From IMG/VR virus record IMGVR_UViG_3300009161_000021: a stretch of 64,000 bases of DNA; one strand, 5' to 3'. Source of the DNA: a virus. Its lineage: Duplodnaviria; Caudoviricetes. Shown here one piece after another: positions 1 to 19,903 of the stretch. Numbering within the stretch: the stretch's first letter is position 1; every line of letters starts with the position of its first letter. Below the pieces are notes generated by a model. The model had not been told where the DNA came from, did not search any database, and saw only the letters and a program-made list of their open reading frames with translations. The position numbers and the translations under genes were made by a program.

Positions 1-1692
1 AAGTCCGCCAGCACCGAGTGTCTCGGTGGAGGTCGAGACTCCATCGTTAGGACGAGTCGTTGAGTTGTAGAGGCCGAACTGGGGACCCCAGTAGAGCTTG
101 CTCTCGCCCGTGGCGTTCGCGCCACCGGCAACGTCTCCTACGTTGATGCTGCGACGGAAGAAGACCGGCGCCTCACGCGCGTTCGTCAGGGGAACGTTGA
201 GGTGAGCCGACGGGCCCGATGAACCAGTCGACATGAAACCAGACCCAGAGGTCACTAGGTGGTAGAGACCACGTGAACCGACGGGAATAGTGTTCGACGG
301 GATGACCTTGTTGATGACTTCATCAGAGAGCTCAACTCTGACCCGACGTGAGACCTTGCCGTAGAGTCCTTCCTCAATGATCTTCTGGGCATCAGCGGTA
401 CGATCGAAATCGAAGTAGGTGTTCTGGTCACCGATCTTCTTTCCAATGAAGTTGTCGCTATCAGGATCAAGATCGCATCCAGAGTATGTCTCGTATACGG
501 TCGCGTAGCCGTCCTCTCCGGTAAAGCTAAGAATCTTCACGGTGAACGTAGCGTAAGAGCCAGCAGCAGGGTACTTGATGCTTTCGATCGCGACCCTGTA
601 CAGTTCATTGGTCGCTGCACCGTCGCCACGAGCGTGGATCTTGAAGAGATTGTAGCGAGTCCCACCGAAGTTCTGGGATGTTACGTACGGGGTCATCGGA
701 TGACCGTACCTGTCCTCGAATCCGTCGTAGTTCGGGAATGTTGTGGTTCCGTTGTTCCTTGACTGAGAGCCGGAAAGGCAGAACACGATCTCTTCGACAG
801 CGGCTGACGTGCTAACACGACGGATCGCAGCCTCAGCTGCAACTCCGGATCCAGTTGGGACTGCGAAAGCGTCCAGAACGTCGTAGTGATTGTAGAGGAC
901 GTAGCCGTGCTCTTCGAGAAGAAGTGGGTTGCTGTTGAACTTTGCTCCGAAGTAGGAGTCGGAAGTTGGGTTGAATGATGCCGTGAGGATGCTTGGGTAA
1001 CCAGCGGAATCGGTGTGTCCGTTCAGGAAGAGCACGAATGTCTGCTCTCCGCTCCGGAGATCGAGCGATCCGGTGAACCAGCCTTTTGCAGGGCTGGCAG
1101 TCGTCGCAGCTAATGAGTAGATATCAGATGTCGCTCCCGGCGCTGAGCTTGATACGGTGATCTGAACTCCCGACGCTGCGAAAAGAACGCCGCGAACGAT
1201 CGGCTGGGCTGCCGTCGATGTCTGGATTCCTGGCTCGGAAAGTAACCAGGAGCCCGCAGACTCGGACATGTAGCATCCGAGGAAGTACGTCCTACCTTCC
1301 AGACCGCCGGCAGTCGCGTAGGGATTGTTGCCGAGCTGACCGTTGGACACCTGAACCTTCCGGGAGCCGACCACGAATCCTGCATTTGTCACGCTTCCTG
1401 CGTTTGTGGCGCCTGTCGTTCTCTTGTTTCCGTCTCCGGCGCCGAGAACCCTGACGTATGTTCCAGCTGAGGCGTTGCTAAGCCACTGGTACAGGGCAAA
1501 GGGAGCGTGATAATTCGCATCCGGATTGCCGAACTCAGTTGTGAACTGTGTGTTATTCGCGAAGGTGATCGGCACGAACGCCGTTCCCTGCGTTGCCGTT
1601 CCAATCACACCGGCGGAGCGGCCCGAGGGTTGAACCTCCGTTACACCACCGGTGCTATCGATCTCGTTTAGTGTTATGCCTGGCGCAGCCAT
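1..1692 (-). CDS. gp18: Tail sheath protein, second paralogue (runs off window at position 1)
   Basis: Absent from the ORF track, translated by hand. ATG at 1692 preceded by an AAGGAG RBS; open for 564 codons to the window edge. MAAPGITLNEIDS...AFVPITF...FTTEFG...YQWL..ASAGTYVRVLGAG...NAGFVV parallels the N-terminus of 1732..4842. Confidence 0.88.
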   Translation of the reverse strand, partial: MAAPGITLNEIDSTGGVTEVQPSGRSAGVIGTATQGTAFVPITFANNTQFTTEFGNPDANYHAPFALYQWLSNASAGTYVRVLGAGDGNKRTTGATNAGSVTNAGFVVGSRKVQVSNGQLGNNPYATAGGLEGRTYFLGCYMSESAGSWLLSEPGIQTSTAAQPIVRGVLFAASGVQITVSSSAPGATSDIYSLAATTASPAKGWFTGSLDLRSGEQTFVLFLNGHTDSAGYPSILTASFNPTSDSYFGAKFNSNPLLLEEHGYVLYNHYDVLDAFAVPTGSGVAAEAAIRRVSTSAAVEEIVFCLSGSQSRNNGTTTFPNYDGFEDRYGHPMTPYVTSQNFGGTRYNLFKIHARGDGAATNELYRVAIESIKYPAAGSYATFTVKILSFTGEDGYATVYETYSGCDLDPDSDNFIGKKIGDQNTYFDFDRTADAQKIIEEGLYGKVSRRVRVELSDEVINKVIPSNTIPVGSRGLYHLVTSGSGFMSTGSSGPSAHLNVPLTNAREAPVFFRRSINVGDVAGGANATGESKLYWGPQFGLYNSTTRPNDGVSTSTETLGAGGL

Positions 1693-1716
1693 TCGTTGAA
1701 CTCCTTAATCTCTTCG

Positions 1717-1725
1717 CTTAACTAT
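1717..1725 (-). promoter_or_regulatory. Putative late promoter motif (AATAGTTAG)
   Basis: Ends 24 nt upstream of the sheath-2 ATG; matches the recurrent ATA-N-YTA-R motif. Confidence 0.5.
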
Positions 1726-1731
1726 TGTTGA

Positions 1732-4700
1732 TTAGACGAACTCGACGCCCGCCGGTGTGATGATAAAGTCGACAGCGATGAATTCTACCGCTCTTGTTGG
1801 AACCACAACAATTCGACCATTCAACCTGTACGCGGCAACATCGGCAGCAGTGTTATTCGTTGAATCCATGACGATCCTGAACTGCTCGATACCAGCCTGC
1901 GCCTTGATGAGACTCAGAAGCGGGGTGGCTCGATCGATGAAAGACTGCCTCGTTGTCGCGTCGTTGGGCTCGAACAGAAGGCCACGTGCCACGTCCTGGA
2001 TAACGCGCTTGAGCTCGAGGAAGAGCCTGCGAACGTTGACCCTATCGAAGGCCGACTTCGAAACCTGGAGTGTCTTCTGTCCGAAGATAACGAAACCGTT
2101 ACCAGGGAAGGTCGCGATTGGGTTAATTCTGTTATCGTACAGGTAGTCGCGATCGGATGTGTTAAGCCTTACTTCAACGTTGGTGACGAAGTCAAGAGCA
2201 GCCCTGTTGAATCCAGCCGGCGCGTACCATGGGTAGGCGACTCTGTCGCTGTACGCAAGAGCGCCGAGAGCAGCGATGGAGGCGGGCGCCTTGACCCTTC
2301 TGTTCGTTGTTGTATCATTGACGAACACATCCGGGAAGTAGGTAGCGACGTAGTTGTTGTTGAGTGACCTTGCGGTAACAGCGTCAGCGGTCTTCGTGAC
2401 GTTCGGCTTCAACGCAGAATCCTCAAAGATTCTAACATTTGCGTCGGAGTAAGCCGGAGCATCAAGAACGTACATTCCAAGAGCGTAGGACGAAAGCCTG
2501 CGAGCGAGGTAGTCGGTCACGAGCGGCTCGCGGACGCCGGGCGTTGCGATCACATTGACATTGACGGTGTACTTGTCAGTCATGAGCTTCGAAGCGACCC
2601 TGTAGGAGTTCACAGCGTTGTTGCTAAGGCTGCTGCCCGCCGGGTCGTAACCGAGACCTGATCTTGCGATCGGCTCAACACCACCTGCCGCGAGCCCACC
2701 GGACTCCGTTGAGGTGGCACGATCCCCGAGCTTCGCAGAAGCTGCGTCGAGGATGTTGACTCCGTCGAATCCACCGTAGAACATCGTCGAGAACTTTGCG
2801 TACTCAGCGAACTTGTTGAATGTGTTCGCCGAACCTGAAAGCAGTGAGGCGAAGGTGATTCGGCTTCCACCAAGAGCGGCATCAGCGATCCTGTAGTCCG
2901 TTGTGCTCGGAACTCCATTCCTGATGTAAGCCGTCTCCTTCATGTGAGCTTCGACAGTTCCCGTGACATCCGTTAGTGATGTGTTGGAAAGTGCGACCCT
3001 AGCGAGAGTGAACTTATTCGCGTTGAAGATATCGGCATCGGATCCAGTCACGAGAGCGTCGAGCTTCTGGATTCCCTGCATCTTCGAGTAGGAAAGGATA
3101 AGAGGATTGAACTCGGTCCCATCGTTGGAGTTCATCACGGCGCTTGAGATGGAAGCTGTCGCAGGCAGACGCTCGAACTTCACGCCCCAGTGGTAGCGTG
3201 AGTCAGGAATCTCGAGGAGACCCGGCGATCCGATGTAGGCAGATCCGTCCACGGTTCCCTTCGTCGCCTTGAAGCGGAACGGAAGCGGTGGAACGATCGA
3301 GCCCGTGAGGGTTGTCGCAACGGAGCTGCTGCAGTAAAGTCTCGGGAGAGCGTTCGCACCAGCACCGTAGGTTCTCGTTCCCTCGGTGAGAGCCGAGGAA
3401 GTGTCGGTCAGGGTCTGCGATGTTCTGACAACCGGGATACCCTTGAATCCGAACGGAAGGGCGCTTGCGGGAACAACACCCGTCGTGAGACCAGCTGCCG
3501 TGATGACCCTGATCCTGCGACTTGCGTTCGGGAAGTTTCCATTGATCACAAGACGCTGCTCGGACTCGTCGCTTGCGTCGAAGTTGTAAGAGACCTTGAG
3601 GTCACCGATCTTCTTAGCGACGTAGTTCTGGCTCGCTGGGTTGATGTCGCAACCTGCGAAGGTCTCCAGAATCTGGGGAGAAGTGTCAGAGTCGTACAGG
3701 TCGCGAACGTTGACATCGAAGGTGCCGTACGGATTTCTCGGATCCGTCGAGGCCTTCACGTTGGAGATCGAGACCTTGTAGAGAGCGTTTCCTGACTCTC
3801 CGTCGGTGAGAGTCTCAAAGTAGAAGAGCTCATGCTCGAGGCTTCCGAAGGGCTGCGAGATGATCGCGGGAGTCCGGGCTGTCGTGTAACGTGTGTCGAA
3901 CCGCCCAAAATTCTGGAGGTATGTGTTCGACGATCCTGAGGCGACCGCGACGCAGCTGTCACCCGTGACATCGAGACCGACGAGCTCGTCCTCGATCGGG
4001 AAGTCGAGGTAGAGCACGTGCTGCTCAGCCTGGAACTTCTTCGGGTCCGTGTTGAAGACCTTACCGAAGTAATCATTCGCGCTCGGGTTGAGAGACGCTG
4101 TCAGGATTCGAAGCCCGCTGTAGCCGTCTGTCGTCCCGAAAGATGAGCCCTGCGAGCTCGAGATCACGAACTTGAACTTCTTGTAGTTCGAGGAAGCAGC
4201 ATTGAGATCCGTTGAGGCAACATCATCGATCACCGAGCCGCCGCCGGACCACTGGGAGTTTGCTCCCGTCATGTCGAGAACCATTCCTCGCGCACCGGTC
4301 GGGAACATGAGAACGCCACGAACGATGTTCAGGGTGTCTCCGATGGAGGGCGGGTTGAAGCTTGGGTTCTCGCTGAAAATCGGGAATCCCTTCCACTCAG
4401 AAGGTGTGGTTGAGCTTGCTGGGATCGAGTGACGGGCGACAAGGAACTGCACGGCTCCTGTCTTACGGGCGTCGCCAGCCGGGAGGGCGACGGTTGATCC
4501 TGTCACCTTGAATCCAGCGTTGCGCACCACACCCTGAGTCAGGGTCGTTGCGACGTCGGACATGCTCGCGTTTGCACCCGCGCCGAGGACGCGGATGAAG
4601 GTGAGGGCACCCTTGTGCTTCAGCCACTCATTGGCGGCGTAAGTTGCAGGACGATCCGGGTCAAGGCCGCCGAAGCGAGCCGAAAAATCCGAAAAAGACG

Positions 4701-4842
4701 ACACGGTCGTCGGCACAAAGGCCGGCCCCGAGGCTGCGGCTCCGATGAGCCCACCTGGGACGCCCGTCGGTTGCGCGCCCGGGGCGGTAAGCTCTATCTC
4801 CCGTTCAAAGAATCCAGGAGAGCGAAAGATTTGTTCCGACAT
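1732..4842 (-). CDS. gp18: Tail sheath protein (T4 gp18-like), 1036 aa with large inserted domain
   Basis: N-terminal SPGFFEREIE; C-terminal sheath motifs WYAPAGFNR, INPIATFPGNGFVIFGQKTLQ, DRVNVRRLF, LFEPND, VVPTRAVEFIAVDF. Confidence 0.95.
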   Translation of the reverse strand: MSEQIFRSPGFFEREIELTAPGAQPTGVPGGLIGAAASGPAFVPTTVSSFSDFSARFGGLDPDRPATYAANEWLKHKGALTFIRVLGAGANASMSDVATTLTQGVVRNAGFKVTGSTVALPAGDARKTGAVQFLVARHSIPASSTTPSEWKGFPIFSENPSFNPPSIGDTLNIVRGVLMFPTGARGMVLDMTGANSQWSGGGSVIDDVASTDLNAASSNYKKFKFVISSSQGSSFGTTDGYSGLRILTASLNPSANDYFGKVFNTDPKKFQAEQHVLYLDFPIEDELVGLDVTGDSCVAVASGSSNTYLQNFGRFDTRYTTARTPAIISQPFGSLEHELFYFETLTDGESGNALYKVSISNVKASTDPRNPYGTFDVNVRDLYDSDTSPQILETFAGCDINPASQNYVAKKIGDLKVSYNFDASDESEQRLVINGNFPNASRRIRVITAAGLTTGVVPASALPFGFKGIPVVRTSQTLTDTSSALTEGTRTYGAGANALPRLYCSSSVATTLTGSIVPPLPFRFKATKGTVDGSAYIGSPGLLEIPDSRYHWGVKFERLPATASISSAVMNSNDGTEFNPLILSYSKMQGIQKLDALVTGSDADIFNANKFTLARVALSNTSLTDVTGTVEAHMKETAYIRNGVPSTTDYRIADAALGGSRITFASLLSGSANTFNKFAEYAKFSTMFYGGFDGVNILDAASAKLGDRATSTESGGLAAGGVEPIARSGLGYDPAGSSLSNNAVNSYRVASKLMTDKYTVNVNVIATPGVREPLVTDYLARRLSSYALGMYVLDAPAYSDANVRIFEDSALKPNVTKTADAVTARSLNNNYVATYFPDVFVNDTTTNRRVKAPASIAALGALAYSDRVAYPWYAPAGFNRAALDFVTNVEVRLNTSDRDYLYDNRINPIATFPGNGFVIFGQKTLQVSKSAFDRVNVRRLFLELKRVIQDVARGLLFEPNDATTRQSFIDRATPLLSLIKAQAGIEQFRIVMDSTNNTAADVAAYRLNGRIVVVPTRAVEFIAVDFIITPAGVEFV

Positions 4843-4875: not shown

Positions 4876-4884
4876 CTAAGTATC
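4876..4884 (-). promoter_or_regulatory. Putative late promoter motif (GATACTTAG)
   Basis: 33 nt upstream of the sheath-1 ATG. Confidence 0.5.
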
Positions 4885-8014: not shown

Positions 8015-8041
8015 GAACGAGCGGCGTGAAGCCGCTCGTTC
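8015..8041 (-). terminator. Perfect 11-bp hairpin, probable terminator
   Basis: GAACGAGCGGC-(5 nt)-GCCGCTCGTTC downstream of the PG-binding gene; followed by CTATTT, only a short U tract. Confidence 0.55.
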
Positions 8042-8060: not shown

Positions 8061-9128
8061 TTACTTCACGCTGGCCTGATTGGCCAAGTACGTCTTCTTC
8101 GCGGACTGTGAGGTCATGGCACCTGCAACCCCGACCATGGTTCCACCGCCCAGAGCGTACGGCTTCTTGGCAAGGATCAGGAGGCTGTCAGCCGTTGGGT
8201 TGTTGACGATGTAGATGAATCTGCTAGCCTCACGATTGGTGCCAGATGTCATCTCAACCGCGCTGTCCTCTCCCTTCGTTATGTCACCTGTAGCCGGAAC
8301 TCCTAGATGATTTGCGAATAGGACTTTGATCTCGGTCAGCTTCTGGATGATCATGCTTAACTCACTGCGGGTCGCAACGGTTCCAACAGATCTCGCCGTC
8401 TGCGCTGCATTTGCGAGGAGGACTGCGAACCGCAGGTTATCGCGGGCGAACAGCATCTTCTGGTCAAAGATGTTTCTGCCGTTTGTGGTATCCTGATACT
8501 GATCGATCGCCGTCTGGACCGACCTTGCCAGCAGGTTCATGACCGTGTTCACATCGCGCGCGGTCTGATCCTGACCGATCGGAGTGTTGGGCGCCTGAAC
8601 CTGCAATGTCGACTGCACAGGAGCCGTGTCGATGCCAGTCTTACCCGTGATCGCGGCCTGCTTTCCAATGAGAGCTGCAATAACATTTCGACCTACGACG
8701 CCGTCCACTGGAAGGCTAGCGGCGTTCTGGAAGGCTATCGTCGCTTTCTGAGTGTTAGGACCGTAGTCACCGTCGACCTTGAATCCTTTCGGCAGTGGAA
8801 TGCCTGAGGCGTTCATGGCAAGCTGCAGAAGCTCCTGATAGATGCTGACAGCGGTTCCCTTGGATCCGGTCTTTAAGGTGACCTGTCCCTGCCCTGCACC
8901 GGCGCCAGCATGAACCTGTAGGAACGTCGGGTCATTACGCATCCTATCGGCTAGGCTCACAGGAATCGTCCAGTTTCCAGCGTTGATCGGGGTACCTGGC
9001 ATTCCCAAGGGAATTCCCTGTCCGACCTTGATCGCACCGGAAATAGTGCGTGTGGCTGCCTGCTCTCTCATCGCTCTGTGAGCTTCCTCGCGTATGATAC
9101 GACGCAGCGTGGACTCAGAAATTAACAT
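8061..9128 (-). CDS. Peptidoglycan-binding (PG_binding_1) domain protein, putative internal virion protein
   Basis: TLKTGSKGTAVSIYQELL...VDGDYGPNTQKATIAFQNAASLPVDGVVG matches PG_binding_1; N-terminal leader MLISESTLRRIIREE. Confidence 0.8.
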   Translation of the reverse strand: MLISESTLRRIIREEAHRAMREQAATRTISGAIKVGQGIPLGMPGTPINAGNWTIPVSLADRMRNDPTFLQVHAGAGAGQGQVTLKTGSKGTAVSIYQELLQLAMNASGIPLPKGFKVDGDYGPNTQKATIAFQNAASLPVDGVVGRNVIAALIGKQAAITGKTGIDTAPVQSTLQVQAPNTPIGQDQTARDVNTVMNLLARSVQTAIDQYQDTTNGRNIFDQKMLFARDNLRFAVLLANAAQTARSVGTVATRSELSMIIQKLTEIKVLFANHLGVPATGDITKGEDSAVEMTSGTNREASRFIYIVNNPTADSLLILAKKPYALGGGTMVGVAGAMTSQSAKKTYLANQASVK

Positions 9129-9131
9129 GAT

Positions 9132-10934
9132 TTATCTCCCTTTCTTGTATTTATTTTTGTTCTTGACACTTTCAAAAAGAATCTTAAGCAGAGATGACCT
9201 TCTGCGGGAATCGACAATCGCTCCGTGCTCACCCTTCAGGATGGACCAGTACTTGTCCTTCATCTCCGGACTCAAGGTCTGGGGCACGTACTGGTCGAAT
9301 GACTGCTTATCATCGGCGGCGAGAAACTGCCTCATCCTTGTCCCTGAGATCTGGACGGTCTCAGCTCTCGATACCGGACGCTGCTCGAATTTCTCTATGA
9401 CAGCTGGATCCCTGATGTTATCAGCCATCTTCGAGGGTGAGTATTTCACCCGAGCGTCCTCATCGTCAGAGTAGAACACGAACTTGCTGACAACGTTCTT
9501 CAGCTGACGCATCTTATCGACAGCGAGGCTCAGCGGAGATTCCGGTGAGATGATGAGGGTCGCATTCGGAAAATCACGGTGAAACTGGGGCTCCAGCACC
9601 GCCTTCCACGCGTCGATCATCACGCCCGGTGGCAGCTCATCGCGGCCAGCGGTCGAAGTGATTATGAGAGCCTCGTCGCACTCCTGAGATGCGAGGCTGA
9701 TCATCTGCCAGTGACCAGCGTGGACGGGCTTTCCAGAGACTACGAAGATTCCAATGCTGATTCCGTTCTGCGTCCCAATCTCGAGACGCTTCATCACCTG
9801 CGTCTTCGTTGTGAGGAACAGGTCCTCCTGACGTTGTATGAGAGTCTTCGGATGATTTAGAGCACCCAATCGATTCGAGATCGCAGCGTCGAAGTAACAC
9901 TCCGCGTGGATCCTCTCGAAAATTTCATCGAGATCGCTCTCGGGCACGTTTCGACGCTGGGCGGGAGCGTGCTCAGACGAGATCTCATTGGCGATGCTAA
10001 CGATGCCGTTCCAGTAAGCCTGTTCGTCCTCCTTCGTCGCAGCCCTAAACTTCTGCTTGATCGCCTGTCGATGCTCAACATCGTGCTGGTCAAAACGAAG
10101 TGCCTTGTACAGGGCCTGGGTGGCCGACGTCCTAAAGACAGATCCCTCTGCTGGTGAGCGCTCGCTCTCTGTTGAGAGCGATGTATCGAAGTCAGAGAAT
10201 AAATCGTAGATAGAATCGACTATCTTCAGAACTCGATCAGGACCAGAGTCTCCGTAAGCTGCTCTTAGCTTTGAATCAAGGTCGGCAGCCCGTCGCTCGA
10301 TGGAAGCGCTCTTGATGCCCGACTTCAATCCCTGGAATGACTCGAGGTTACCTTCGAAGAGAACGGGATATGTCTGAACTCCGAGCAACCTGGCATACTC
10401 CTCGAGCTTTGCCTCATCGTTCTGCGGAGTGATGTTCGAGACAAGATAGGTTCCTGTCACCTTGTACCTTGAAGGACCGAAGAGGGTCAGGAAGATCCCA
10501 TGCTTCCGAGGATACTCACGGCTGATCGTTGGCTTCCGCTGAACAAACTCGAGAAAGAATTCGGTCCCGGGAGGAATCGCAGCGGTGTTTCTATGAACCT
10601 GCGCAAGGTGAGAGTGAACGAGAGAGTACTGAGCTGTTCCGGATGATCCTGAACGAACCTCCTCCTCGCGTGCAGCAAGGCCGCGTGCCTCACCCGGATA
10701 GATGACGTTGCCCTTGTAAGCGATGTACCAATTCTTGGTGTAATCTTCTGGATCGAACGCGTTGTTTCGACGGAGGAGCGTGAGCTTCGTGCCGTCGATC
10801 TTCTCTACGATCTTGATGCTGGGATCACTCAGGAACACCTGGGCTTTCTTTATATCATTGGCCCGCGCGCGTGGAGACGCGTCAGGACGAACCATGACCT
10901 TCTTGAGATCTTCGATCGAGATATCGGTTGACAT
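9132..10934 (-). CDS. Fusion of an ATP-dependent RNA-ligase-like nucleotidyltransferase domain and a C-terminal HxGH cytidylyltransferase/adenylyltransferase-like domain
   Basis: Ligase motifs: I EKIDG (10791-10805), III FFLEF, IV AEGSVFR, V LYK. C-terminal GKPVHAGH (HxGH) followed by a Rossmann-like region and a QISGTRMRQFL motif. Confidence 0.75.
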   Translation of the reverse strand: MSTDISIEDLKKVMVRPDASPRARANDIKKAQVFLSDPSIKIVEKIDGTKLTLLRRNNAFDPEDYTKNWYIAYKGNVIYPGEARGLAAREEEVRSGSSGTAQYSLVHSHLAQVHRNTAAIPPGTEFFLEFVQRKPTISREYPRKHGIFLTLFGPSRYKVTGTYLVSNITPQNDEAKLEEYARLLGVQTYPVLFEGNLESFQGLKSGIKSASIERRAADLDSKLRAAYGDSGPDRVLKIVDSIYDLFSDFDTSLSTESERSPAEGSVFRTSATQALYKALRFDQHDVEHRQAIKQKFRAATKEDEQAYWNGIVSIANEISSEHAPAQRRNVPESDLDEIFERIHAECYFDAAISNRLGALNHPKTLIQRQEDLFLTTKTQVMKRLEIGTQNGISIGIFVVSGKPVHAGHWQMISLASQECDEALIITSTAGRDELPPGVMIDAWKAVLEPQFHRDFPNATLIISPESPLSLAVDKMRQLKNVVSKFVFYSDDEDARVKYSPSKMADNIRDPAVIEKFEQRPVSRAETVQISGTRMRQFLAADDKQSFDQYVPQTLSPEMKDKYWSILKGEHGAIVDSRRRSSLLKILFESVKNKNKYKKGR

Positions 10935-12469
10935 CAGCTTCCCCAGATTGCAGATTCTATGAGACGATTGAGACGATAAGCTTTCGATTCATCGACTTCA
11001 CCTGGAGCTGTGTCGTCCTCAGTGAATCCTTCCTCTCCACGAACCTTGTACTTCGCGTAGAAGCTTGCCTTCATACCCTCGATGTCCATCGTGGAGGATT
11101 CAGCTTCGGGAAGGATTTGCCTGAAGACCTCAAGGATCTTTTCCTTGACGCTCATATCTTCGTTCTTGTCAGTTGCTGAAATTTGCTGGGCAACTGCACC
11201 GAAGAGCCTGATTGCCATCTCCTCGTAAACCCTAACAATTTCAGGTGGAGTCATCCTGTTTTTCATTATATCGAGCGTACCGAGGAATGATCCAAAGTCC
11301 TCCATCTCTTTTTCCGTAGGCGGCGGATTATCTCCGAACATCCCTGTGAATATTTGTCTGATATCACGAATCGCTTGGGTTCTCTCAACTCGTTTCAAGT
11401 ACTTGTAGACATCATTCCCGTTGTGCTGCCAGTCGAGCTTCCTGTACCTGTCGGAGTATCCAGTCACAAGATCGAGGGATTTCATGGGTCTCAAACGAGC
11501 GGGCTTCTTCTCAGCTGCTGAGAGCTCAGCCTTGACCTCGGTCTCAGCTTTACGGCGAGCGGTCGCCGGGCTTATTCGAGGCTGCTGTGATTCGATCTCG
11601 GACGCACGAGCCTGGATCTTGCTCTCGATCTCCTCGGCGCTGGGTGGCACGTACTTCCTGTCCTTGGTCATCGAGATCTTCGGATTCTCGGCCGAGGCTG
11701 CGTCCGTGGCAAGACGTGCATCGATGGGTGGGGGAGAACGAACTGCAGCAAGCGAGAATAGAAGGATCTTGTGCGCGAGACCTTTCACACCCGCCTCGAT
11801 GTCTCTCCAGGAGGACGAGTATGAAAACTTTGCCCACGGAGAGGGTCGACCGCCCTCGTACTCAGATCCTTCGAAGTCAATCTGAAAGAACGTATCCCCC
11901 TCACCGGGAGGAGCGGAGGGATCCCATGTGTAAGCGAAGAGAGCGTTGATCTGGTGCTGACCCGGGCTCTTTTTGTTGTGACCGACGTACGCAATTCTTG
12001 GGGTGAGCTGCTCATCCTCACGACGGTTGAGCGTTGAAAAGAGCCCGTTCATCTTATCAACTGGAACCGTGAGGTCGATGTCCCCCACTGTCGGCTTAAA
12101 CTCTAGGAACTTCTCGTCCGACAGAGTCTCTGGAGGGGCGAAGAGATGCGCTGATGATCCGTTAAAGGCGAATCCGGAACCCAGGACATCATCGCGTTGG
12201 GCTCGATCCCAAAGCGGCTCACCGTGGTCGTTGTTGAACTCATCATCGAGGACCTGAAGCATCTCAATGACGTCGCGTCTCAGATCCTGACGATTTATCC
12301 TGCCGGATCGAAGATCTATTTTTTCAGCAAAAGCAGATCGACCGCGGAACTGCCTGACCTGGTCAGGACCCGAAACTAGGCCCGTCTCTGGGTCTCGAAC
12401 GAGTGCTCTGGTGTTGCCCCCCTCATTGACGGGAGCAGCACCGAACATGAACTTTGAGATGCTAAACAA
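10934..12469 (-). CDS. Pol-beta-superfamily nucleotidyltransferase-like protein
   Basis: TTG start with AAGGAG RBS; NEGGN near N-terminus; GSS...GDIDLTV...FQIDF fits the hG[GS]x(n)DhD...D triad. TGATG overlap with the next gene. Confidence 0.65.
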   Translation of the reverse strand: MFSISKFMFGAAPVNEGGNTRALVRDPETGLVSGPDQVRQFRGRSAFAEKIDLRSGRINRQDLRRDVIEMLQVLDDEFNNDHGEPLWDRAQRDDVLGSGFAFNGSSAHLFAPPETLSDEKFLEFKPTVGDIDLTVPVDKMNGLFSTLNRREDEQLTPRIAYVGHNKKSPGQHQINALFAYTWDPSAPPGEGDTFFQIDFEGSEYEGGRPSPWAKFSYSSSWRDIEAGVKGLAHKILLFSLAAVRSPPPIDARLATDAASAENPKISMTKDRKYVPPSAEEIESKIQARASEIESQQPRISPATARRKAETEVKAELSAAEKKPARLRPMKSLDLVTGYSDRYRKLDWQHNGNDVYKYLKRVERTQAIRDIRQIFTGMFGDNPPPTEKEMEDFGSFLGTLDIMKNRMTPPEIVRVYEEMAIRLFGAVAQQISATDKNEDMSVKEKILEVFRQILPEAESSTMDIEGMKASFYAKYKVRGEEGFTEDDTAPGEVDESKAYRLNRLIESAIWGS

Positions 12470-12485
12470 TTTACGCTCCTTGAGC

Positions 12486-13448
12486 TCAGATGCCCCAGTT
12501 GATCGAGATCTTCCGACGGCCTTCCGTCAATGTACCCCCTGAGCCTCTTGCTATGGGTGCGGTGTCCCTGCGTTGGAGAGCAGCACCATTCACAGTTATA
12601 GACGTCGGAAGAGCCAGCTTCTCATTGACTTTTATCACGTTGGGGTCTGGTTTGTTAAGAGCAGCTGCAAGCGCTTTGTAAGCTGGAGGGGTTCCATTTC
12701 CGTAGAAACGAAGGCAGATCTGCGACAGAGTATCTCCTCTTACGACGGTGTACGTCTTCGTTCCAGGAGTTGGTGTCGGACCAGGACCTGGAGTTGGTGT
12801 GGGAGAAGGTGCCGGAGCGACGGCGCCGCCGGGCTTCCCGCCCGCTTTTTTCCACTTCATGATCGCCGCGCTAATAAAACGCCAGAAGAAATCTGTTCCC
12901 AGAGCGTACGTTCTGTCCTCTCTCTCTAGATTGTCCAGAGCCGGGAAAGCTTCCTTGTACTTGTCGTTAACGATCTTATACAAGCTATCCGCATTGAGAG
13001 TTCCAGACTTAGCAGCGGAGAGAACTTGATCGAATATCTCCTGCTTGTAAGCAGACGGAAGGTCATCAAGGTCACCGTCGTCTTGACCCTCCATTCCACC
13101 TGAAAGTGGGCCCAACGCATCGACATTCATATCACAGTAAAGAAGTGGATCAGTTCCCGTTAGGGTCGAATTGCTAGCTGAATCACGACCCGTCTCTGCC
13201 GTTCCACCTGCGCCGAACATAATATCTTTGAGGTCAGCTTCAAGCTGCGCGTCCGCTGCAGCAGCAGGGTCGACGGGAGCGGAAGGCGCTGCCGGTGTTG
13301 CTGGCGCGGCTGGTGCTGCTTGAGCTGGTGCTGGTGCAGATACGCTCGCTGTTCCTGTATCACCGTCGTCTGCAGGTGCTTCAAACAATCTAACGCGACG
13401 TGATTCCTCACGAAGGATCTGGCGAAGTCTCGCCTCGGTAATCTTCAT
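12486..13448 (-). CDS. LysM domain protein, putative internal virion protein
   Basis: YTVVRGDTLSQICLRFYG...NKPDPNVIKVNEKLALP is a LysM domain after a Pro/Thr linker; leader MKITEARLRQILREE. Confidence 0.85.
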   Translation of the reverse strand: MKITEARLRQILREESRRVRLFEAPADDGDTGTASVSAPAPAQAAPAAPATPAAPSAPVDPAAAADAQLEADLKDIMFGAGGTAETGRDSASNSTLTGTDPLLYCDMNVDALGPLSGGMEGQDDGDLDDLPSAYKQEIFDQVLSAAKSGTLNADSLYKIVNDKYKEAFPALDNLEREDRTYALGTDFFWRFISAAIMKWKKAGGKPGGAVAPAPSPTPTPGPGPTPTPGTKTYTVVRGDTLSQICLRFYGNGTPPAYKALAAALNKPDPNVIKVNEKLALPTSITVNGAALQRRDTAPIARGSGGTLTEGRRKISINWGI

Positions 13449-13507: not shown

Positions 13508-13542
13508 ACTACAACGGCCACCCAAAAGGGTGGCCGCGTAGT
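13508..13542 (-). terminator. Rho-independent terminator after the major capsid gene
   Basis: Minus strand ACTACG-CGGCCACCC-TTTT-GGGTGGCCG-TTGTAG-TTTT: perfect 9-bp GC-rich stem, extendable, followed by a U tract, about 20 nt after the MCP stop. Confidence 0.85.
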
Positions 13543-13561: not shown

Positions 13562-15448
13562 TCAGATGATGTTGAGGTCGAGGCAGGTGACCGTACCGTA
13601 GAAGTCCGACCTGACCATCTTCTTGCCGTAGCGAGTCATGACACCCTTTCTCGGGGTGAAGTCCTCAGGCGCGAAGATCGTCGGGGTGACAATCAGCGGG
13701 ACGTACGGAGCGTAGACGTAGCCGGTCTCGAGGTAGCTTCCGCCCTTGAAACCAACAAGGATCTTGTTGCGGGGGAAGTACGGATCCTTGTACACCGTGA
13801 AGCGGTTGCTCAGGGTACCAACCTTCTCGGCGCCGATCGAGAACGGAGCGCCGACCTGGCCGGAGCCGTCGATGCTGTAGCTCGGGCGGTAGTAGGTCGA
13901 GGCCTCGAGGATCGTGGCGACGTCCGGACCGACCACGATGAAGTTCGCGGAGCCGCGAAGCGTCTTGCGGTGGATCTCGTTGGCGACGTCGATGATCGTC
14001 TCGGTGAGGGTCTCGTACCACTCGCGGACGGTACCGGTGAACATCGGGCCGATGGTACCAGCGCCGCCGGTCGTCTGGAAGACGCCCGTGGTCTTGTTGA
14101 CGAACTTACCAGGAGCGCGGCTCCAGAAGTAGTTCGCGCCGGAGGCCTGCACGAGGAGGTCGTTGAGGATCTCGCGATCCAGCTCGAGGGCAATCTGCTC
14201 GGAGAGGATCTGAGTAAGCTCAACCTCAGCGTCGATGCTGTGGTAAGCGTTCAGATCCTGCGCGAGCTCCGGAGACCAGCGAGCGCGGAGCTTGCGGGTC
14301 GTCGCGGTGACGGCGAGGGACTCGATCTTGATGTCGATCTCGGGGATGACCGGGGAGGGGGTCGTGCCGAAGTTCGACTCGAAGACCGGGATGGTCGCGG
14401 TGGAGCCGGTTGAGGTCTCGACGTCCAGTGAGGAGGCGAGCGGGTAGCTGAGCCTCATCTGACCCGAGCCGCTTGACATGTCGGTGGTGAGGGCACCAGA
14501 GACGACGGTCAGGAGGTGGGTTCCGGAGAGCGGGGTGGGGGTGAAGACGCCGCCAGCCCAAATGCCGATCTGGTTCAGACGACGAAGGTTGAGGACACCG
14601 CTGCCGCCCTGGAATGCCTCGCCGAACACCGTAGCGTCGCCATAGGTCGTCCTCGGGAAGAGAGCGAAATCCTTGGCGAGGCTCTGGTCAGTGGAAGCCG
14701 AGCAAGCGCCGAGCTGCACGACCGCGAACTTGAAGGCGCCGGTTCCGACACCGTTGCCCGGGTTGACGCCCGCCTCGATGAGGGAGGTCATCTGCGGGTC
14801 GAATCCGAGGAGACGACCGTCGGTGCCCGTCGCGAAAGCGAACTTTGTCGCCGCGAAAGCTCCGTTACCACCGAAAGCGCCTGAGGCCTCGACCGTGACA
14901 TTCGTGAGAGCGTGCACGCGGCTGTAAGCGGTTCCGACGAGATCGTACATACCACCCACGGCGAGAGATCCGCTCTGGATTCCCTTACCAACCGGGTTGT
15001 TGTAGATCGACTGGCCGGTGCTGTAGGTCGCCTGGGTGCTATTCGGGGTTCCGTCAACGCCTGAGTTACCACCGCGGTCGTTACCGTAGGTGTAATCCAG
15101 GTAGAACAGGAGACCGGATGGGAGGCTCATTGGCTGGATCGAAACGAGCTCGTTCGCCACTAGACCACCGAAGACGCGGCGGACGATGGGGAACGCGATG
15201 TTCGAGAAGCCGCGGATGTCGCCACCGCCGGAGGTGGAACCGCCACCGGATGACATCGAGTTGCTCTCGCGGAGGAGGTTGGCAGTCTGGTTCTCGAGGA
15301 GGCGAGCCATGTTCTCGCGATTGACGCCCTCAAGGCCACGAAGCAGGCCGGTGCGGCTCCACTTCTCGACGAGACGGCCGTTCTCCGCCCCGACGTCGCG
15401 CCCGCGGATTCCTTCCGAGAGCTGCTCTAGTGTGAAAGTCTTTGACAT
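13562..15448 (-). CDS. gp23: Major capsid protein (T4 gp23-like), 628 aa
   Basis: PIVRRVFGGLVANELVSIQPMSLPSGLLFYL, TATTRKLRARWSPELAQDLNAYHSIDAEVELTQILSEQIALELDREI, YAPYVPL, KGVMTRYG motifs; strong codon bias. Confidence 0.97.
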   Translation of the reverse strand: MSKTFTLEQLSEGIRGRDVGAENGRLVEKWSRTGLLRGLEGVNRENMARLLENQTANLLRESNSMSSGGGSTSGGGDIRGFSNIAFPIVRRVFGGLVANELVSIQPMSLPSGLLFYLDYTYGNDRGGNSGVDGTPNSTQATYSTGQSIYNNPVGKGIQSGSLAVGGMYDLVGTAYSRVHALTNVTVEASGAFGGNGAFAATKFAFATGTDGRLLGFDPQMTSLIEAGVNPGNGVGTGAFKFAVVQLGACSASTDQSLAKDFALFPRTTYGDATVFGEAFQGGSGVLNLRRLNQIGIWAGGVFTPTPLSGTHLLTVVSGALTTDMSSGSGQMRLSYPLASSLDVETSTGSTATIPVFESNFGTTPSPVIPEIDIKIESLAVTATTRKLRARWSPELAQDLNAYHSIDAEVELTQILSEQIALELDREILNDLLVQASGANYFWSRAPGKFVNKTTGVFQTTGGAGTIGPMFTGTVREWYETLTETIIDVANEIHRKTLRGSANFIVVGPDVATILEASTYYRPSYSIDGSGQVGAPFSIGAEKVGTLSNRFTVYKDPYFPRNKILVGFKGGSYLETGYVYAPYVPLIVTPTIFAPEDFTPRKGVMTRYGKKMVRSDFYGTVTCLDLNII

Positions 15449-15503: not shown

Positions 15504-17234
15504 TCACTTACCCGGCTTGATACCTGCGAGGATGCCCCAGCGATCGACCTCAACGGATTCATTCAGGTTGCTTGCGCTGCCTGACCGTGTTGATCTGGAC
15601 GATGAGCCCAAAACGCGACCCTCGTTGACTGTTCCCGACTTGGACTTGAGTGACTCAGTCAAGCTCGTGAACAGAAGCTTCGCTTCCCTAACGGACTTCG
15701 CGGCGTCAAGCGACTCAACGATCGCCCTCTGCTGACGCGGCGTGAGGTCGCGATTCTGCATAAGCTTATTAACGTAGAGAAGCTTAGCGTTGAACAGGTT
15801 GACCTCTTCGAGCTGCTCGCGCAGGGTAGCATTTGCGCGCTCAGACTCTGACAGTTGAGCCTTGAGCTCACGATTCTTGCGTGACTCCTCGACTCTCGCT
15901 GATCTTTCATTTTTCGCGGCGTCGGTTGCCTTCTTGGCAACTTCAAGCGCCTTGCTTGCGACGGCCTCGGCCTCATCGGACTCCGAGAGGTGGTTGAGCT
16001 CATCGGGAAGACCCGTGACGCTGCCGCCACCGAATGCCTTCGGCATCGGATCCTTGATTCCCTTCGCGTTCTTGCCCTTTGAGCTCCTGCCCTTCGCCTC
16101 ACGAAGTCTGCTCAGCTCACGACGGAGCATGGACTCATCGACGTTGAAGTGAACGCTCTCGTTCTCGTAGTCTTCGTCCTCTTCAAGCTCGTCATCTTCC
16201 TCTTCGAGCTCGTCGTATTCCTCGTCCATCTCTTCGTACTCATCGAGATCGTCCATCATCTCATAGACTCCCTCGTCTTCCTCAGAGACAGGCGGCGAGG
16301 CACCAGCTGGTGGGGCCGGCGGAGGGGCTGCACCAACAACATCGACCGGCATATCCTCTCCACCCTCAGCACCGGGCTCTTCCTCACCGGCGAACTCGAT
16401 ACCGAAGGACATCCCCTTCAGCTTCTCCTTGAAATCTTCATCGTCGAGTCCCTCGAGATCGGTGGGCTCGAACACGAGCTTCGCCTCTCTACGAAGACGC
16501 GGCTTTCTATCCATTTCCTCTAGGAGGCGACGGAATCTCGCGTTTGTTGACATTTGCTTCATCTCCTTAACTAATGTGTTGAACTTTTGCTTGACTGCAG
16601 GCGTTCCACCATTAGATAGTAGTTGACTCTGCAAATCATGCGTATTTTTCACTAAAATTGCATACGCTGCCCTAAAATTGCTGCTCTCAGAGAGCGGGAG
16701 ACTCTTGGAGACTCTCTTCAGAGACTCGAACTGGCGACGAACCGTCCCGTATGAAACTCTCTGCTTTCTTTCTCCAAGAACCATATCAGCGAGCGCTTCG
16801 AGACCTTCCTTGTTAAGGGAGATATCGACATCGTCTCCTTCAGCAGCATCGGCCTCGGCAGCAGCTGATGCTTCACCGTGCTTATCAACGCGAACGTTTA
16901 TCTTCACCTCAGTCCCAGAAGCTGTCTTCGTGGTGACCGTGTGAGTGACCTCCTCGTCAGGGTCAGGAGCACCTGCGGCTGGTACCATGCCCGCATCGGC
17001 TGCCATGGGTGGTGCTGCGGGAGCGTTCATTTCATCCGGAAGCGCTTCGAGGTCGAGATTCGGAGTCTCATCGTCGGCAGGAACATCCTCATCCTGCTCA
17101 GCGAGCATCTGCTGCTCGATGAGTTGCCTGATTCTGGGTGATATGGATTCAATGATCTTGTTGCGTGCGTTTGCTTCAGCCATCTCTCTAAGGGCCTTTG
17201 CATCTGCTATCGCTTCGTCGAAAAGATTCGGCAT
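15504..17234 (-). CDS. Prohead core / scaffolding protein
   Basis: Immediately upstream of MCP; acidic low-complexity tract, coiled coil, NLFNAKLLYVNKL...AKSVREAKLLF motif, C-terminal RWGILAGIK; many L/V-x-E sites. Confidence 0.75.
   Translation of the reverse strand: MPNLFDEAIADAKALREMAEANARNKIIESISPRIRQLIEQQMLAEQDEDVPADDETPNLDLEALPDEMNAPAAPPMAADAGMVPAAGAPDPDEEVTHTVTTKTASGTEVKINVRVDKHGEASAAAEADAAEGDDVDISLNKEGLEALADMVLGERKQRVSYGTVRRQFESLKRVSKSLPLSESSNFRAAYAILVKNTHDLQSQLLSNGGTPAVKQKFNTLVKEMKQMSTNARFRRLLEEMDRKPRLRREAKLVFEPTDLEGLDDEDFKEKLKGMSFGIEFAGEEEPGAEGGEDMPVDVVGAAPPPAPPAGASPPVSEEDEGVYEMMDDLDEYEEMDEEYDELEEEDDELEEDEDYENESVHFNVDESMLRRELSRLREAKGRSSKGKNAKGIKDPMPKAFGGGSVTGLPDELNHLSESDEAEAVASKALEVAKKATDAAKNERSARVEESRKNRELKAQLSESERANATLREQLEEVNLFNAKLLYVNKLMQNRDLTPRQQRAIVESLDAAKSVREAKLLFTSLTESLKSKSGTVNEGRVLGSSSRSTRSGSASNLNESVEVDRWGILAGIKPGK
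16150..16290 (-). repeat. Glu/Asp-rich low-complexity repeat in the scaffold gene
   Basis: EEDEGVYEMMDDLDEYEEMDEEYDELEEEDDELEEDEDYENE, with repeated DE(Y/L)EE units. Confidence 0.7.
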
Positions 17235-17272: not shown

Positions 17273-17857
17273 TCACGGGTCTTTTTCGAGCTCTTGCTCC
17301 AAATGAATTGCACGTATGAGCCTGCGGAGCCTGCTGGCGGTCAGCTCATCCGAATCCGGGATCTCTGCAAGGGTGTATGCTGGTTCCATGGATCCCGCGT
17401 CCCTGAGTGGAAGCGAGCTGGAGTATCCGGCCTTGGACCCAGAAAGTGAGATTCGAGCGGGAGCTGGTCTTATCGATGGACCGTCAGCACCGACCCCGAG
17501 GACGCCCTGCTTATTCTTATACAGATCAGGCATCGGCGAGATACCACGACCCGTGGTCTGCTCGTGCATTCTGAAATCGGGACTGACCATTCTTCTGTTA
17601 TCGGCCGCACGATCCGCGTAGGAGTCCCAACGGATGTGACCCTGTCCAGCCTTGTTACCGATCGCGACCTGCGTTCGCAGATCTTCCTCGTCCTCAAGAT
17701 CTTCCTCATCATCAACGTCATCTCGAACTATCTCGATATAGGGCCATGAGCCCTGTGACATCCGAGGCAAATCACGACGCCCGTCCGTGCCGTATCCCAG
17801 GCCGGTGCGAGCGTCGTGATTCGGATTGTTAGCCTCGTCGAGGCGACGACGTGACAT
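17273..17857 (-). CDS. Hypothetical protein (head region)
   Basis: 194 aa ORF in operon orientation; begins MSRRRLDEA, ends RLRRLIRAIHLEQE. Confidence 0.8.
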   Translation of the reverse strand: MSRRRLDEANNPNHDARTGLGYGTDGRRDLPRMSQGSWPYIEIVRDDVDDEEDLEDEEDLRTQVAIGNKAGQGHIRWDSYADRAADNRRMVSPDFRMHEQTTGRGISPMPDLYKNKQGVLGVGADGPSIRPAPARISLSGSKAGYSSSLPLRDAGSMEPAYTLAEIPDSDELTASRLRRLIRAIHLEQELEKDP

Positions 17858-18501: not shown

Positions 18502-18798
18502 TCAGAGCTGTTCGAGGATGTGGGCGCGAATCTCCTGACGAGCCTCGTTAATCTCCGAGAGACGCCGCGCGATACGTGCTGCTTCGTTCTGGAGATCCTT
18601 GTAATGAGCGACTTCCTTCGCGAGCGTGTGAGCGAGCTCAGTGGGCTCGACTTCCTTCGTCTGCTTCGCAGCATCGCGGGTTGTGCCGGGCTTACCGGAT
18701 GGCATCTTCTTGGACGCGCGCTTCTTAGCAATCTTCTGCTTCTCTTCCTTGATGATGAGACGAAGAATTTCAGGGGTGAGATTTACGACCTTCGACAT
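18502..18798 (-). CDS. Small hypothetical protein with leader-like motif and coiled coil
   Basis: AAGGAG RBS; NLTPEILRLIIKEE motif. Confidence 0.8.
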   Translation of the reverse strand: MSKVVNLTPEILRLIIKEEKQKIAKKRASKKMPSGKPGTTRDAAKQTKEVEPTELAHTLAKEVAHYKDLQNEAARIARRLSEINEARQEIRAHILEQL

Positions 18799-18839: not shown

Positions 18840-19292
18840 TCACTTCTTTTTTTCTGCCGAGAAAGCAAGTTCAGCCCAATTTGACGACCCTTCAAAAAGT
18901 GACATGGGATCAACATCTGGAACCCCCTGGGCGACTGACATTGCGGCAGCTGGATTCCGTTCAGCGGTCATCTGGGCTGGTAGCGTGTTTCGTGCAGTGT
19001 CCTCGAATATCTGCTGCATGATCCCGCGTTCCTCCTTCGGAAATTCGGACGCAAGGTTCGCGACAGCAGGTATTGGAGCTCTGCGACCTTGCGCTTGCTC
19101 TGCGACTCTGCTCGCCCCTGCTGAGAATGCTATGCTATCGAGATGCTTCTTCGGTGCTGGCGCGGGTCGGTTCAGAGATTCGCGTTGGGGACGAGCAGGA
19201 GGCTCCTCACCGCCCCGGAGACCCTCGAGAAGAACCTCCAAGATGCACTCTTTAACAATGTCCTTTAACTCAGCCTTAGTCAACGATGCCAT
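18840..19292 (-). CDS. Hypothetical protein (head region)
   Basis: TAATG-coupled to the protease gene; LTKAELKDIVKECILEVLLE motif. Confidence 0.8.
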   Translation of the reverse strand: MASLTKAELKDIVKECILEVLLEGLRGGEEPPARPQRESLNRPAPAPKKHLDSIAFSAGASRVAEQAQGRRAPIPAVANLASEFPKEERGIMQQIFEDTARNTLPAQMTAERNPAAAMSVAQGVPDVDPMSLFEGSSNWAELAFSAEKKK

Positions 19293-19903
19293 TAAGCCTT
19301 CCAGGTTAGAATATCGTTGAATATTCTATCAATCCGATCGCTTCGATTAAATGTTCTTGAAAGTTCCGAGGCTTTTACTTCACGACCTTCCCTCATCATG
19401 AAAGCGCCGGGGGTGCTCGGCTCCGAAACGAAATCCCAGCAGATAAGCTGGAAGTCATCCTGCACGACCTGGGAGTCACCCGACTTGCTGGTCGATCCGA
19501 CACCGCGGGAAGAGATTCCAAGCGTGACGCCAGCCTCGACAAGGCTTTGAAGGATCTTGCCGCAGGGAGTGTCAAGGATCTCAACTGTTCCATAGCAGAC
19601 GTTTCCCTCCATGTAAGCTTCCCTGATGATGTGACTCACCTTTTTCAGCTCCACTACGGACGAATCGGGGTGATCGCATTCGCCCAGCGCTCGATTCTCT
19701 CGAATGAATTTCTGGTAGTTTCTTACCTCACGTTCGAGAATATCACGAGGATAGATTCTCCCGTTCTGGTTCAGTGTTTCAGCCTTCTGAAGGATTCCCT
19801 TCATGATAAGGCGACCACCGCTCTCCTTCGCCTCTCTGATCGATTTGTTATCGTAAGAGAATGGCATCCATTCCGTCAAAAGTGTCAGGGATCTATCACT
19901 CAT
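19292..19903 (-). CDS. gp21: Prohead protease (T4 gp21-like)
   Basis: GILQKAETLNQNGRIYP, ALGECDHP, ILDTPCGKI, GISSRGVGS, DFVSEPSTPGAF motifs. Confidence 0.96.
   Translation of the reverse strand: MSDRSLTLLTEWMPFSYDNKSIREAKESGGRLIMKGILQKAETLNQNGRIYPRDILEREVRNYQKFIRENRALGECDHPDSSVVELKKVSHIIREAYMEGNVCYGTVEILDTPCGKILQSLVEAGVTLGISSRGVGSTSKSGDSQVVQDDFQLICWDFVSEPSTPGAFMMREGREVKASELSRTFNRSDRIDRIFNDILTWKA

Follow-up and report, generated by a model that had tools for sequence, protein, structure and literature searches.

Probable head-packaged, protease-trimmed cargo encoded by a late-module gene cassette in a distant T4-like myovirus

The stretch of viral DNA analyzed here (IMG/VR record IMGVR_UViG_3300009161_000021; Duplodnaviria, Caudoviricetes; 64,000 nucleotides), referred to below as the window, is the late module of a distant T4-like myovirus. 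Between its major capsid gene and its neck genes lie four genes, all on the minus strand, which we call A, B, C and D. An initial annotation of the window had proposed that they encode proteins that are packaged in the head, matured by a protease and ejected. In our analysis this is also the best-supported reading, and we consider it probable. It is backed by a Peptidase_S77 prohead protease, by the predicted maturation site of the capsid protein (LLRE61/S, where a slash marks a cut or processing point), by a leader peptide that recurs on unrelated proteins, by an [LI]-x-E/GGN junction in the family of B, and by the homologues of B and C found in virions of Campylobacter phage IBB_35; from these we infer it for the phage of the window.

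We propose that the products of A to D would be built into the prohead core, trimmed by the gp21-type (S77) protease and kept in the DNA-filled head, and that they would be released into the next host along with the genome, by the mechanism of the T4 internal proteins and Alt. The leader of A and D would be an address tag with three [LIVM]-x-E sites that is removed after docking. B would be a pro-protein, in which a cut after V-N-E16 exposes Gly-Gly-Asn, and the C-terminal helical tails of B and C, each of which has an L-x-E site, would be trimmed as well. The genes and their parts are as follows (lengths in amino acids, aa).

12486-13448, minus strand: gene A, 320 aa; leader, then an acidic linker rich in Ala and Pro, LysM, and a C-terminal tail ending INWGI; variable slot for putative cargo
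13380-13448, minus strand: leader of A (residues 1-23); [LIVM]-x-E ends at residues 5, 14 and 23 (RLFE/A)
12606-12752, minus strand: LysM domain of A (residues 233-281); Pfam 21.6 bits, cut-off 20.9
10934-12469, minus strand: gene B, 511 aa, TTG start; PolX-like nucleotidyltransferase of the Pol-beta superfamily; kept in all 14 relatives
12422-12469, minus strand: predicted propeptide of B (residues 1-16); ends V-N-E before GGN; disordered in the model
10937-10993, minus strand: C-terminal tail of B (residues 493-511), DES..RLNRLIE/SAIWGS; helix behind a disordered linker
9132-10934, minus strand: gene C, 600 aa; fusion of an Rnl2-like ligase domain and an HxGH adenylyltransferase-like domain; kept in all 14 relatives
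9135-9212, minus strand: C-terminal tail of C (residues 575-600), DSRRRSSLLKILFE/SVKNK...; low model confidence
8061-9128, minus strand: gene D, 355 aa; leader, PG_binding_1 and a helical C-terminal region; variable slot for putative cargo
9063-9128, minus strand: leader of D (residues 1-22); [LIVM]-x-E ends at residues 5, 14 and 22 (AMRE/Q)
8670-8837, minus strand: PG_binding_1 of D (residues 98-153); Pfam 39 bits, cut-off 23

The four genes, the hairpins on either side of them, both leaders, the two tails and the VNE/GGN sequence lie where the initial annotation had placed them. Its reading of the products (a LysM protein, a Pol-beta-type nucleotidyltransferase, a ligase/HxGH fusion and a peptidoglycan binder) was recovered from the motifs and domains.

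An after-Glu junction in the family of gene B

Judged from sequence, gene B makes the strongest case for packaged cargo. An exhaustive profile search placed it in a phage-only family of 604 clusters at 50% identity, all of them unannotated. Among the best 150 of the 604 clusters, 71 start M/GGN, while 64 carry an N-terminal extension of 4-42 residues. At P1, 63 of the 64 extensions have Glu; at P3, 42 have Leu, 21 have Ile and 1 has Val. A cut at [LI]-x-E/GGN would therefore leave the same N-terminus that the short forms have after removal of the Met; the untagged members would reach it by starting M-GGN. The VNE/GGN noticed in the initial annotation near the start of the nucleotidyltransferase is the local instance of this family-wide junction, and E16, G17, G18 and N19 are invariant in the B orthologues. 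In the clade of the window the extension is translated, with an ATG or TTG and a ribosome-binding site at the same codon, and it is disordered in the structural model. In a Vibrio phage the M/GGN start of B is likewise genuine, with in-frame stops upstream.

On a tree of 138 B representatives (FastTree only), the extension trait requires at least 34 changes, as against 45-48 with shuffled labels, and the family thus appears to have moved often between the extended and the M/GGN forms. In other phages some B extensions and C-terminal tails look leader-like, and a few relatives of C have similar N-terminal extensions. A single-protein locus search for distant relatives of B found none.

The product of B carries the motifs NGSS..GDIDLT..QIDFE, with a longer spacing than usual between G-S and D-x-D; G104, S105, G129, D130, D132 and D198 are invariant or nearly so in 53 diverse members. 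Its AlphaFold model has a predicted local-distance difference test (pLDDT) score of 90.9. Against the palm and thumb of Pol beta, Pol mu, TdT and African swine fever virus PolX, the model gave VIA-align Z scores of 7.1-7.6 over 164-194 residues, values at which (Z < 8) the tool cautions that a match can reflect a common arrangement. Foldseek matched it to the family X polymerase fold at E 0.03. None of the 53 members matches any nucleotidyltransferase family in Pfam, and a sequence search of PDB was also empty; the sole curated family that B matches is PHROG 19290, of unknown function.

A portable leader on unrelated proteins

The second line of evidence is the leader shared by A and D, 22-23 residues long, with a consensus of roughly M-x-I-[ST]-E-x-x-L-R-x-I-[IV]-R-E-E...h-x-E. 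The near-identity of the two leaders was confirmed as first quoted, and profiles made from relatives alone pick out just these two proteins in the window. A position-specific scoring matrix (PSSM) built only from the leaders of relatives scored A and D at 29-33 bits, the next best match reaching 14.6. With HMMER, the leader profile found the two leaders at independent E-values of 7e-8 and 6.5e-6, and no other of the 45 open reading frames (ORFs) of the window was significant.

In relatives, the replacement proteins at the position of D (slot D), and one at the position of A (slot A), have the same leader and are otherwise unrelated, only the first 20-30 residues being shared. The leader DNA varies at synonymous positions while the peptide stays, which places selection on the peptide. 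In a homologue of D with an overall identity of 52%, 14 of 15 leader residues are retained. A profile built from nine leaders and run against three long relatives detected leader genes (E 7.5e-13 to 1e-3) that stand in tandem arrays, well away from the head module. The relatives with arrays are those without slots A and D, and almost none of the array genes has a Pfam domain. A and D would accordingly be seen as interchangeable cargo, in that relatives would fill the slots with other tagged proteins or keep up to ten of them in arrays.

Two arrays can be described individually. In one contig (locus L023, G002 contig, 145.0-151.0 kb) 9-10 consecutive minus-strand genes each start with the leader, and in another (L024, G001 contig, 164.5-171.3 kb) six consecutive minus-strand genes do so. 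These arrays resemble the hyperplastic locus of the T4 internal proteins.

Over the nine contigs examined, 25 tagged proteins form 16 clusters that have no similarity past residue 30, and almost none has a Pfam domain. Most of the 25 have [LIVM]-x-E at residues 5, 14 and 21-24, and the site at residue 5 or its equivalent is found in all 25. Conservation of the leader stops after the [LIVM]-x-E at residues 21-24, which supports the RLFE/A and AMRE/Q sites suggested in the initial annotation. The leader profile found nothing in four distant T4-like phages (Mel-JY01, immuto, CPt10 and phiKT1024), and a tblastn search with the 22-residue leader across all phage records gave no match.

The prohead protease and published virion data

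The module contains both a candidate processing enzyme and a capsid protein with a predicted site of the same type.

19292-19903, minus strand: prohead protease of the T4 gp21 family (phrog_207, 3e-51; Peptidase_S77, 91 bits, cut-off 27); presumed processing enzyme
13562-15448, minus strand: gp23-type major capsid protein; predicted maturation site L-R-E61/S, with the Glu codon at 15266-15268

The capsid sequence L-L-R-E61/S is invariant in the clade and aligns with I-S-E/A and V-S-E/A of two cultured relatives, at what we take to be the position where T4 gp23 is cut. The predicted site LLRE/S also matches the I[IL]RE/E type of the leader. T4-type prohead proteases cut after Glu (PMC3012670, PMC5694885). 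The T4 internal proteins have only their targeting sequence in common (PMC3012670), and Alt, a packaged enzyme of T4, is shortened by six residues at ITE-6 and by 63 at LTE-619 (PMC5694885).

Published data on one phage bear on homologues of the two enzymes. Mass spectrometry of Campylobacter phage IBB_35 virions detected the products of gene 1-56 at 17% coverage, of gene 2-25 at 2.9% and of gene 2-24 at 23.7% (PMC3322345, Table S2). By coordinates and alignment, gene 1-56 is a homologue of B (E 4e-29) with the junction ILE/GGN, and a homologue of C is split into two halves, encoded by genes 2-25 and 2-24. This detection is supportive of packaging and is not proof of it. Literature searches for virion proteomics of the B and C enzyme families otherwise gave nothing useful.

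Fixed enzymes and variable slots

Synteny was assessed in 14 IMG/VR contigs that carry relatives of the cassette. All 14 have B and C in the interval from the capsid gene to the adaptor gene, at 61-90% identity, while slots A and D are missing or replaced in most; the conserved gene order to which the initial annotation had looked therefore holds for the two enzymes and mostly fails for their neighbors. Both slots are empty in three contigs, and elsewhere they hold other genes, including homing-endonuclease-like insertions. Because the flanking slots vary while B and C stay, A and D have no fixed functional tie to the two enzymes. The suggestion that the four genes are one module coupling wall anchoring to nucleotidyl transfer is not supported, since A and D are swappable and B and C occur elsewhere without a wall binder.

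Individual contigs add detail on the slots. At L007:3794-4861 the slot-D protein is 100% identical to D of the window, while the flanking C is 84% and the adaptor 91% identical, a pattern that points to recent exchange of a single putative cargo gene. At L008:11533-14490, C and the slot-D gene form one continuous ORF of 986 aa, also present as a protein-database entry (P0032); the leader lies where the two meet, and the slot gene has a ribosome-binding site of its own. Endonuclease-like insertions mark the stretch from the capsid gene to B as a hot spot: a TnsA-like 205-aa gene lies there in two contigs (L002:122-739 and L003:122-739), and a 476-aa Cys/His-rich gene in another (L004:595-2025). 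In three contigs (L005:151-603, L006:4703-5146 and L011:9425-9895) the gene next after the capsid gene encodes a Ser/Thr-rich protein of 147-156 aa without the leader, which may be a decoration protein. In two cultured distant relatives, Mel-JY01 (L027) and Flavobacterium phage immuto (L028), the interval between capsid and neck genes likewise holds non-structural genes, including PhoH.

Gene C, the terminal tails and the partnership of B and C

Gene C encodes two recognizable parts. The ligase part has the EKIDG motif with the ligase lysine (Lys45), and K45, D47, G48, E129, E263, G264 and K277 are invariant in 31 members of the family. PF09414 matches five of the 31 members, with the C protein of the window itself under the Pfam threshold. 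The AlphaFold model (pLDDT 86.6) has its best Foldseek matches in T4 Rnl2 (2hvr, 2hvq and 1s68, E 5e-7 to 2e-5). The second part has the HAGH (His405, His408) and ISGTRMR motifs, and H405, H408, S530 and R535 are conserved. Here PF01467 matches four of the 31 members, a profile search against PDB finds PPAT at E 1.4e-4, and Foldseek gives target TM-scores of 0.63-0.73 for PPAT/NaMNAT.

Both enzymes end in tails that are conserved in orthologues, helical and set off by disordered linkers, with one L-x-E site each. The initial annotation had described these tails as related. They exist and are conserved, but they resemble each other, and the leader, only modestly, and the resemblance is not significant by PSSM and HMMER.

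C is present in 21 of the 23 phage records that have B. In two unrelated contigs (L029:7796-11045 and L030:4472-7972), B, C and a metallophosphoesterase of 187-188 aa are immediate neighbors, B starts M/GGN, and the surroundings hold genes for gp32, a RecA-like protein, an exonuclease, a helicase and a polymerase. In Vibrio phages, B and C lie in the early region beside RNA ligase 1 and a CCA-adding enzyme. It is a real if somewhat doubtful possibility that the polymerase, ligase and phosphoesterase would together carry out the healing of nucleic-acid ends, the filling of gaps and sealing. B and C, with the metallophosphoesterase in other phages, would then provide this activity at the very start of infection. 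The domain architectures of bacterial LigD and of Pnkp-type end-healing and sealing systems imply the same set of activities (polymerase, ligase and metallophosphoesterase). There is no homology to these systems beyond the superfamily level, however, and the ligase that accompanies B is Rnl2-like with an extra HxGH domain.

This association also raises the alternative that survives best, although we judge it unlikely, namely that B and C work in the producing cell, in late repair of nicks and gaps in concatemeric DNA before or during packaging. The tails would then pair B with C, and detection in virions would be carry-over on the DNA. Consistent with this, B, C and the phosphoesterase are found elsewhere among replication and recombination genes with B starting M/GGN, B and C of L030 share similar tails though that B has no propeptide, and some non-structural proteins appear in the IBB_35 virion list. 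Repair in the producing cell gives no account, however, of why the extension found in half of the family virtually always ends in [LI]-x-E right before GGN, even where it is only 4-5 residues long, or of the placement of B and C between leader-tagged genes in the head module. The trimming of T4 Alt at both the N- and the C-terminus is, moreover, a precedent for such processing of a packaged enzyme.

Wall-binding domains in the slot proteins

For A and D, Pfam gives only LysM and PG_binding_1, and no catalytic domain was found. Their PHROG matches to endolysins are restricted to the binding domains, and we rejected A and D as endolysins, no muramidase, amidase or peptidase catalytic domain being recognized. 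The C-terminal part of D has no recognizable fold. By reading of the sequence alone, the N-termini of both are charged helices, unlike signal peptides. The description of A and D as peptidoglycan binders that have neither a signal peptide nor a recognizable catalytic domain agrees with this reading and with the Pfam, PHROG and fold searches. Among the slot proteins of relatives, that of L001 has a marginal LysM match (17.8 bits, below the 20.9 cut-off), and those of L006, L007 and L009 have LysM-like or PG_binding_1-like motifs by eye. A, D and several of the replacement peptidoglycan binders may be released into the periplasm early in ejection, or may be displayed on the capsid.

Display on the capsid is the core of a second alternative, in which A and D would decorate the outside of the capsid or serve in adhesion: the N-terminal helix, left uncut, would anchor them on the shell, and the LysM or PG_binding_1 domain would stick virions to cell walls or debris. 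The recurrence of wall-binding domains in slot proteins (as a marginal LysM match and by-eye motifs), the better fit of such domains to the exterior of the particle and the lack of a catalytic domain in A and D speak for it. We nonetheless regard it as improbable, because the leader stands on at least 16 unrelated clusters, most of them without a binding domain and some in arrays of up to ten genes, while a capsid surface has few distinct sites, and because the conserved block stops exactly at a protease-type site. Least likely of all is that the leader is a general tag unrelated to the head (for assembly with a host or phage factor, timed degradation or localization) with an incidental likeness to protease sites, given that it co-occurs with an S77 protease whose predicted capsid site, LLRE/S, matches the I[IL]RE/E of the leader, and that it is missing from four distant phages with other scaffolds, as would fit co-evolution with a clade-specific core. 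In T4, too, the genes for the internal proteins and Alt stand apart from the head genes.

Weighing the evidence for packaging

Several points weigh against the packaging of A to D. For the phage of the window, the presence of the four proteins in the virion and their cleavage are inferred. The [LIVM]-x-E motif is short and common, and it carries weight only through being conserved at a fixed position. In fold, B resembles family X polymerases at a middling level (Z about 7.5), and it has no fitting Pfam family. The likeness of the B and C tails to the leader is not significant, and the tails could instead pair the two enzymes. The IBB_35 list includes an ExsB-like regulator and hence possible contaminants, and coverage of the ligase part was only 2.9%. 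Peptidoglycan-binding domains have no obvious role in proteins injected into the cytoplasm. Finally, Vibrio phages and two metagenomic contigs carry B and C in an early or a replication region, with B starting M/GGN, and the enzymes therefore do not need packaging.

Packaging in the head followed by trimming and ejection remains the reading that we prefer, and a more tentative extension of it can be offered. The prohead protease may act as an arming switch for about half of the B family, in which case the enzyme would have no activity in the cell that produces it and would gain activity only once in the capsid, ready for the next host. The family would have switched between packaged and cytoplasmic forms dozens of times. 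A position-independent helical tag would load the heads of environmental T4-like phages with an arsenal of unrelated proteins, including peptidoglycan binders (at least 16 clusters in nine contigs, with up to about ten genes per contig).

Genomic context of the cassette

On the minus strand, the module begins with the large terminase, a gp20-type portal (PF07230), an unknown gene and the Peptidase_S77 prohead protease. It continues with four small unknown genes, a 576-aa gene at the scaffold position and the gp23-type capsid gene, and then the cassette in the order A-B-C-D. On the 3' side of the cassette are a gp13-like adaptor, two further neck-position genes and two sheath paralogues. The remaining features are as follows.

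13514-13537, minus strand: terminator-like hairpin beyond the stop of the capsid gene; 10 pairs, of which 8 are G-C, with a T-rich tail
8015-8041, minus strand: perfect hairpin of 11 pairs between D and the gp13-like adaptor gene
15504-17234, minus strand: scaffold-position protein, 576 aa; presumed docking partner, with its role assigned from gene position only; internal DESMLRRELSRLRE stretch, and RWGI near the C-terminus

The nearest capsid protein in the phage reference collection is that of Microcystis phage Mel-JY01, at 35% identity, there being no close phage in that collection; the cassette DNA has no match there. The two sheath paralogues (window 1-4842) stand in tandem, are strongly diverged and are kept as a pair in relatives.

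Leader-like helices were considered in genes of the interval between protease and scaffold (18502-18798, 18840-19292 and 17273-17857), in the scaffold-position protein itself and in the tails of B and C. They scored 0.6-7.5 bits or below, which is not significant, and were not counted as tagged. The internal DESMLRRELSRLRE of the scaffold-position protein (residues ~364-380, window 16090-16140) resembles the leader, yet it scores only 1 bit by the leader profile. A ends in INWGI (12486-12500), B in IWGS (10937-10951), and in the scaffold-position protein RWGI stands twelve residues before the C-terminus (15504-15545); among the 45 ORFs of the window, only A and B have WG in their last eight residues. 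Such WG-containing C-termini may be a second, C-terminal docking motif.

The start codon of B also varies. It is TTG where a slot-A gene precedes (window 12467-12469, L005 and L009), and ATG after ATA[CT][AT]TAG in most relatives in which no slot-A gene was seen upstream. The same octamer lies upstream of a sheath gene in the window (4876-4883). As a promoter motif, ATAYWTAG, which lies directly upstream of B in relatives, was rejected; it occurs once in the window, below chance expectation.

Comparison with known systems

As we read it, the A-D system is a variant of the internal-protein and Alt system of T4. In T4, as here, a short N-terminal leader stands on unrelated, fast-evolving proteins (IPI, IPII and IPIII; PMC3012670, PMC5694885), the leader ends at an after-Glu site (where cleavage is predicted in the present case), the genes occupy variable loci, and the system includes a gp21-family protease and a scaffold core (the scaffold here being assigned by position only). 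There are also differences from the T4 internal proteins. The leader here is about 22 residues long with three candidate sites, compared with about 10 residues in T4, and its sequence appears to differ. A related helix is seemingly also found at C-termini, and some of the putative cargo has peptidoglycan-binding domains.

T4 Alt is a head-carried enzyme that is trimmed at both ends (PMC5694885), which parallels the predicted propeptide and tail of B and the tail of C. The chemistry here is that of a PolX-like nucleotidyltransferase and a ligase-adenylyltransferase fusion rather than of an ADP-ribosyltransferase, and there is no sequence relationship to Alt.

To our knowledge, no shared short tag exists in the giant phages phiKZ, SPN3US and 201phi2-1. 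These phages package many proteins in the head, some of them enzymes, and a related protease processes them on the C-terminal side of Glu, frequently with more than one cut in a single propeptide (PMC5694885). Their propeptides are mostly longer than 100 residues with the motif A/S-x-E, in contrast to the L/I-x-E described here.

Implications for T4-like phages

Packaged, injected proteins are the first move of a phage on its host, and sequence makes them difficult to spot except in T4 and a few giant phages. A clade-specific leader combined with an after-Glu site would provide a sequence rule for the cargo set of an uncultured phage group, and it suggests that the logic of T4, in which variable cargo stands behind a constant tag, is general. 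The B family, with 604 clusters and no Pfam model, and C are candidates for virion-delivered enzymes of nucleic-acid repair or modification, and cleavage by the protease is predicted to create the functional N-terminus of B. The leader could also serve as a tool for filling such capsids with foreign proteins, an application for which the T4 sequence is already in use.

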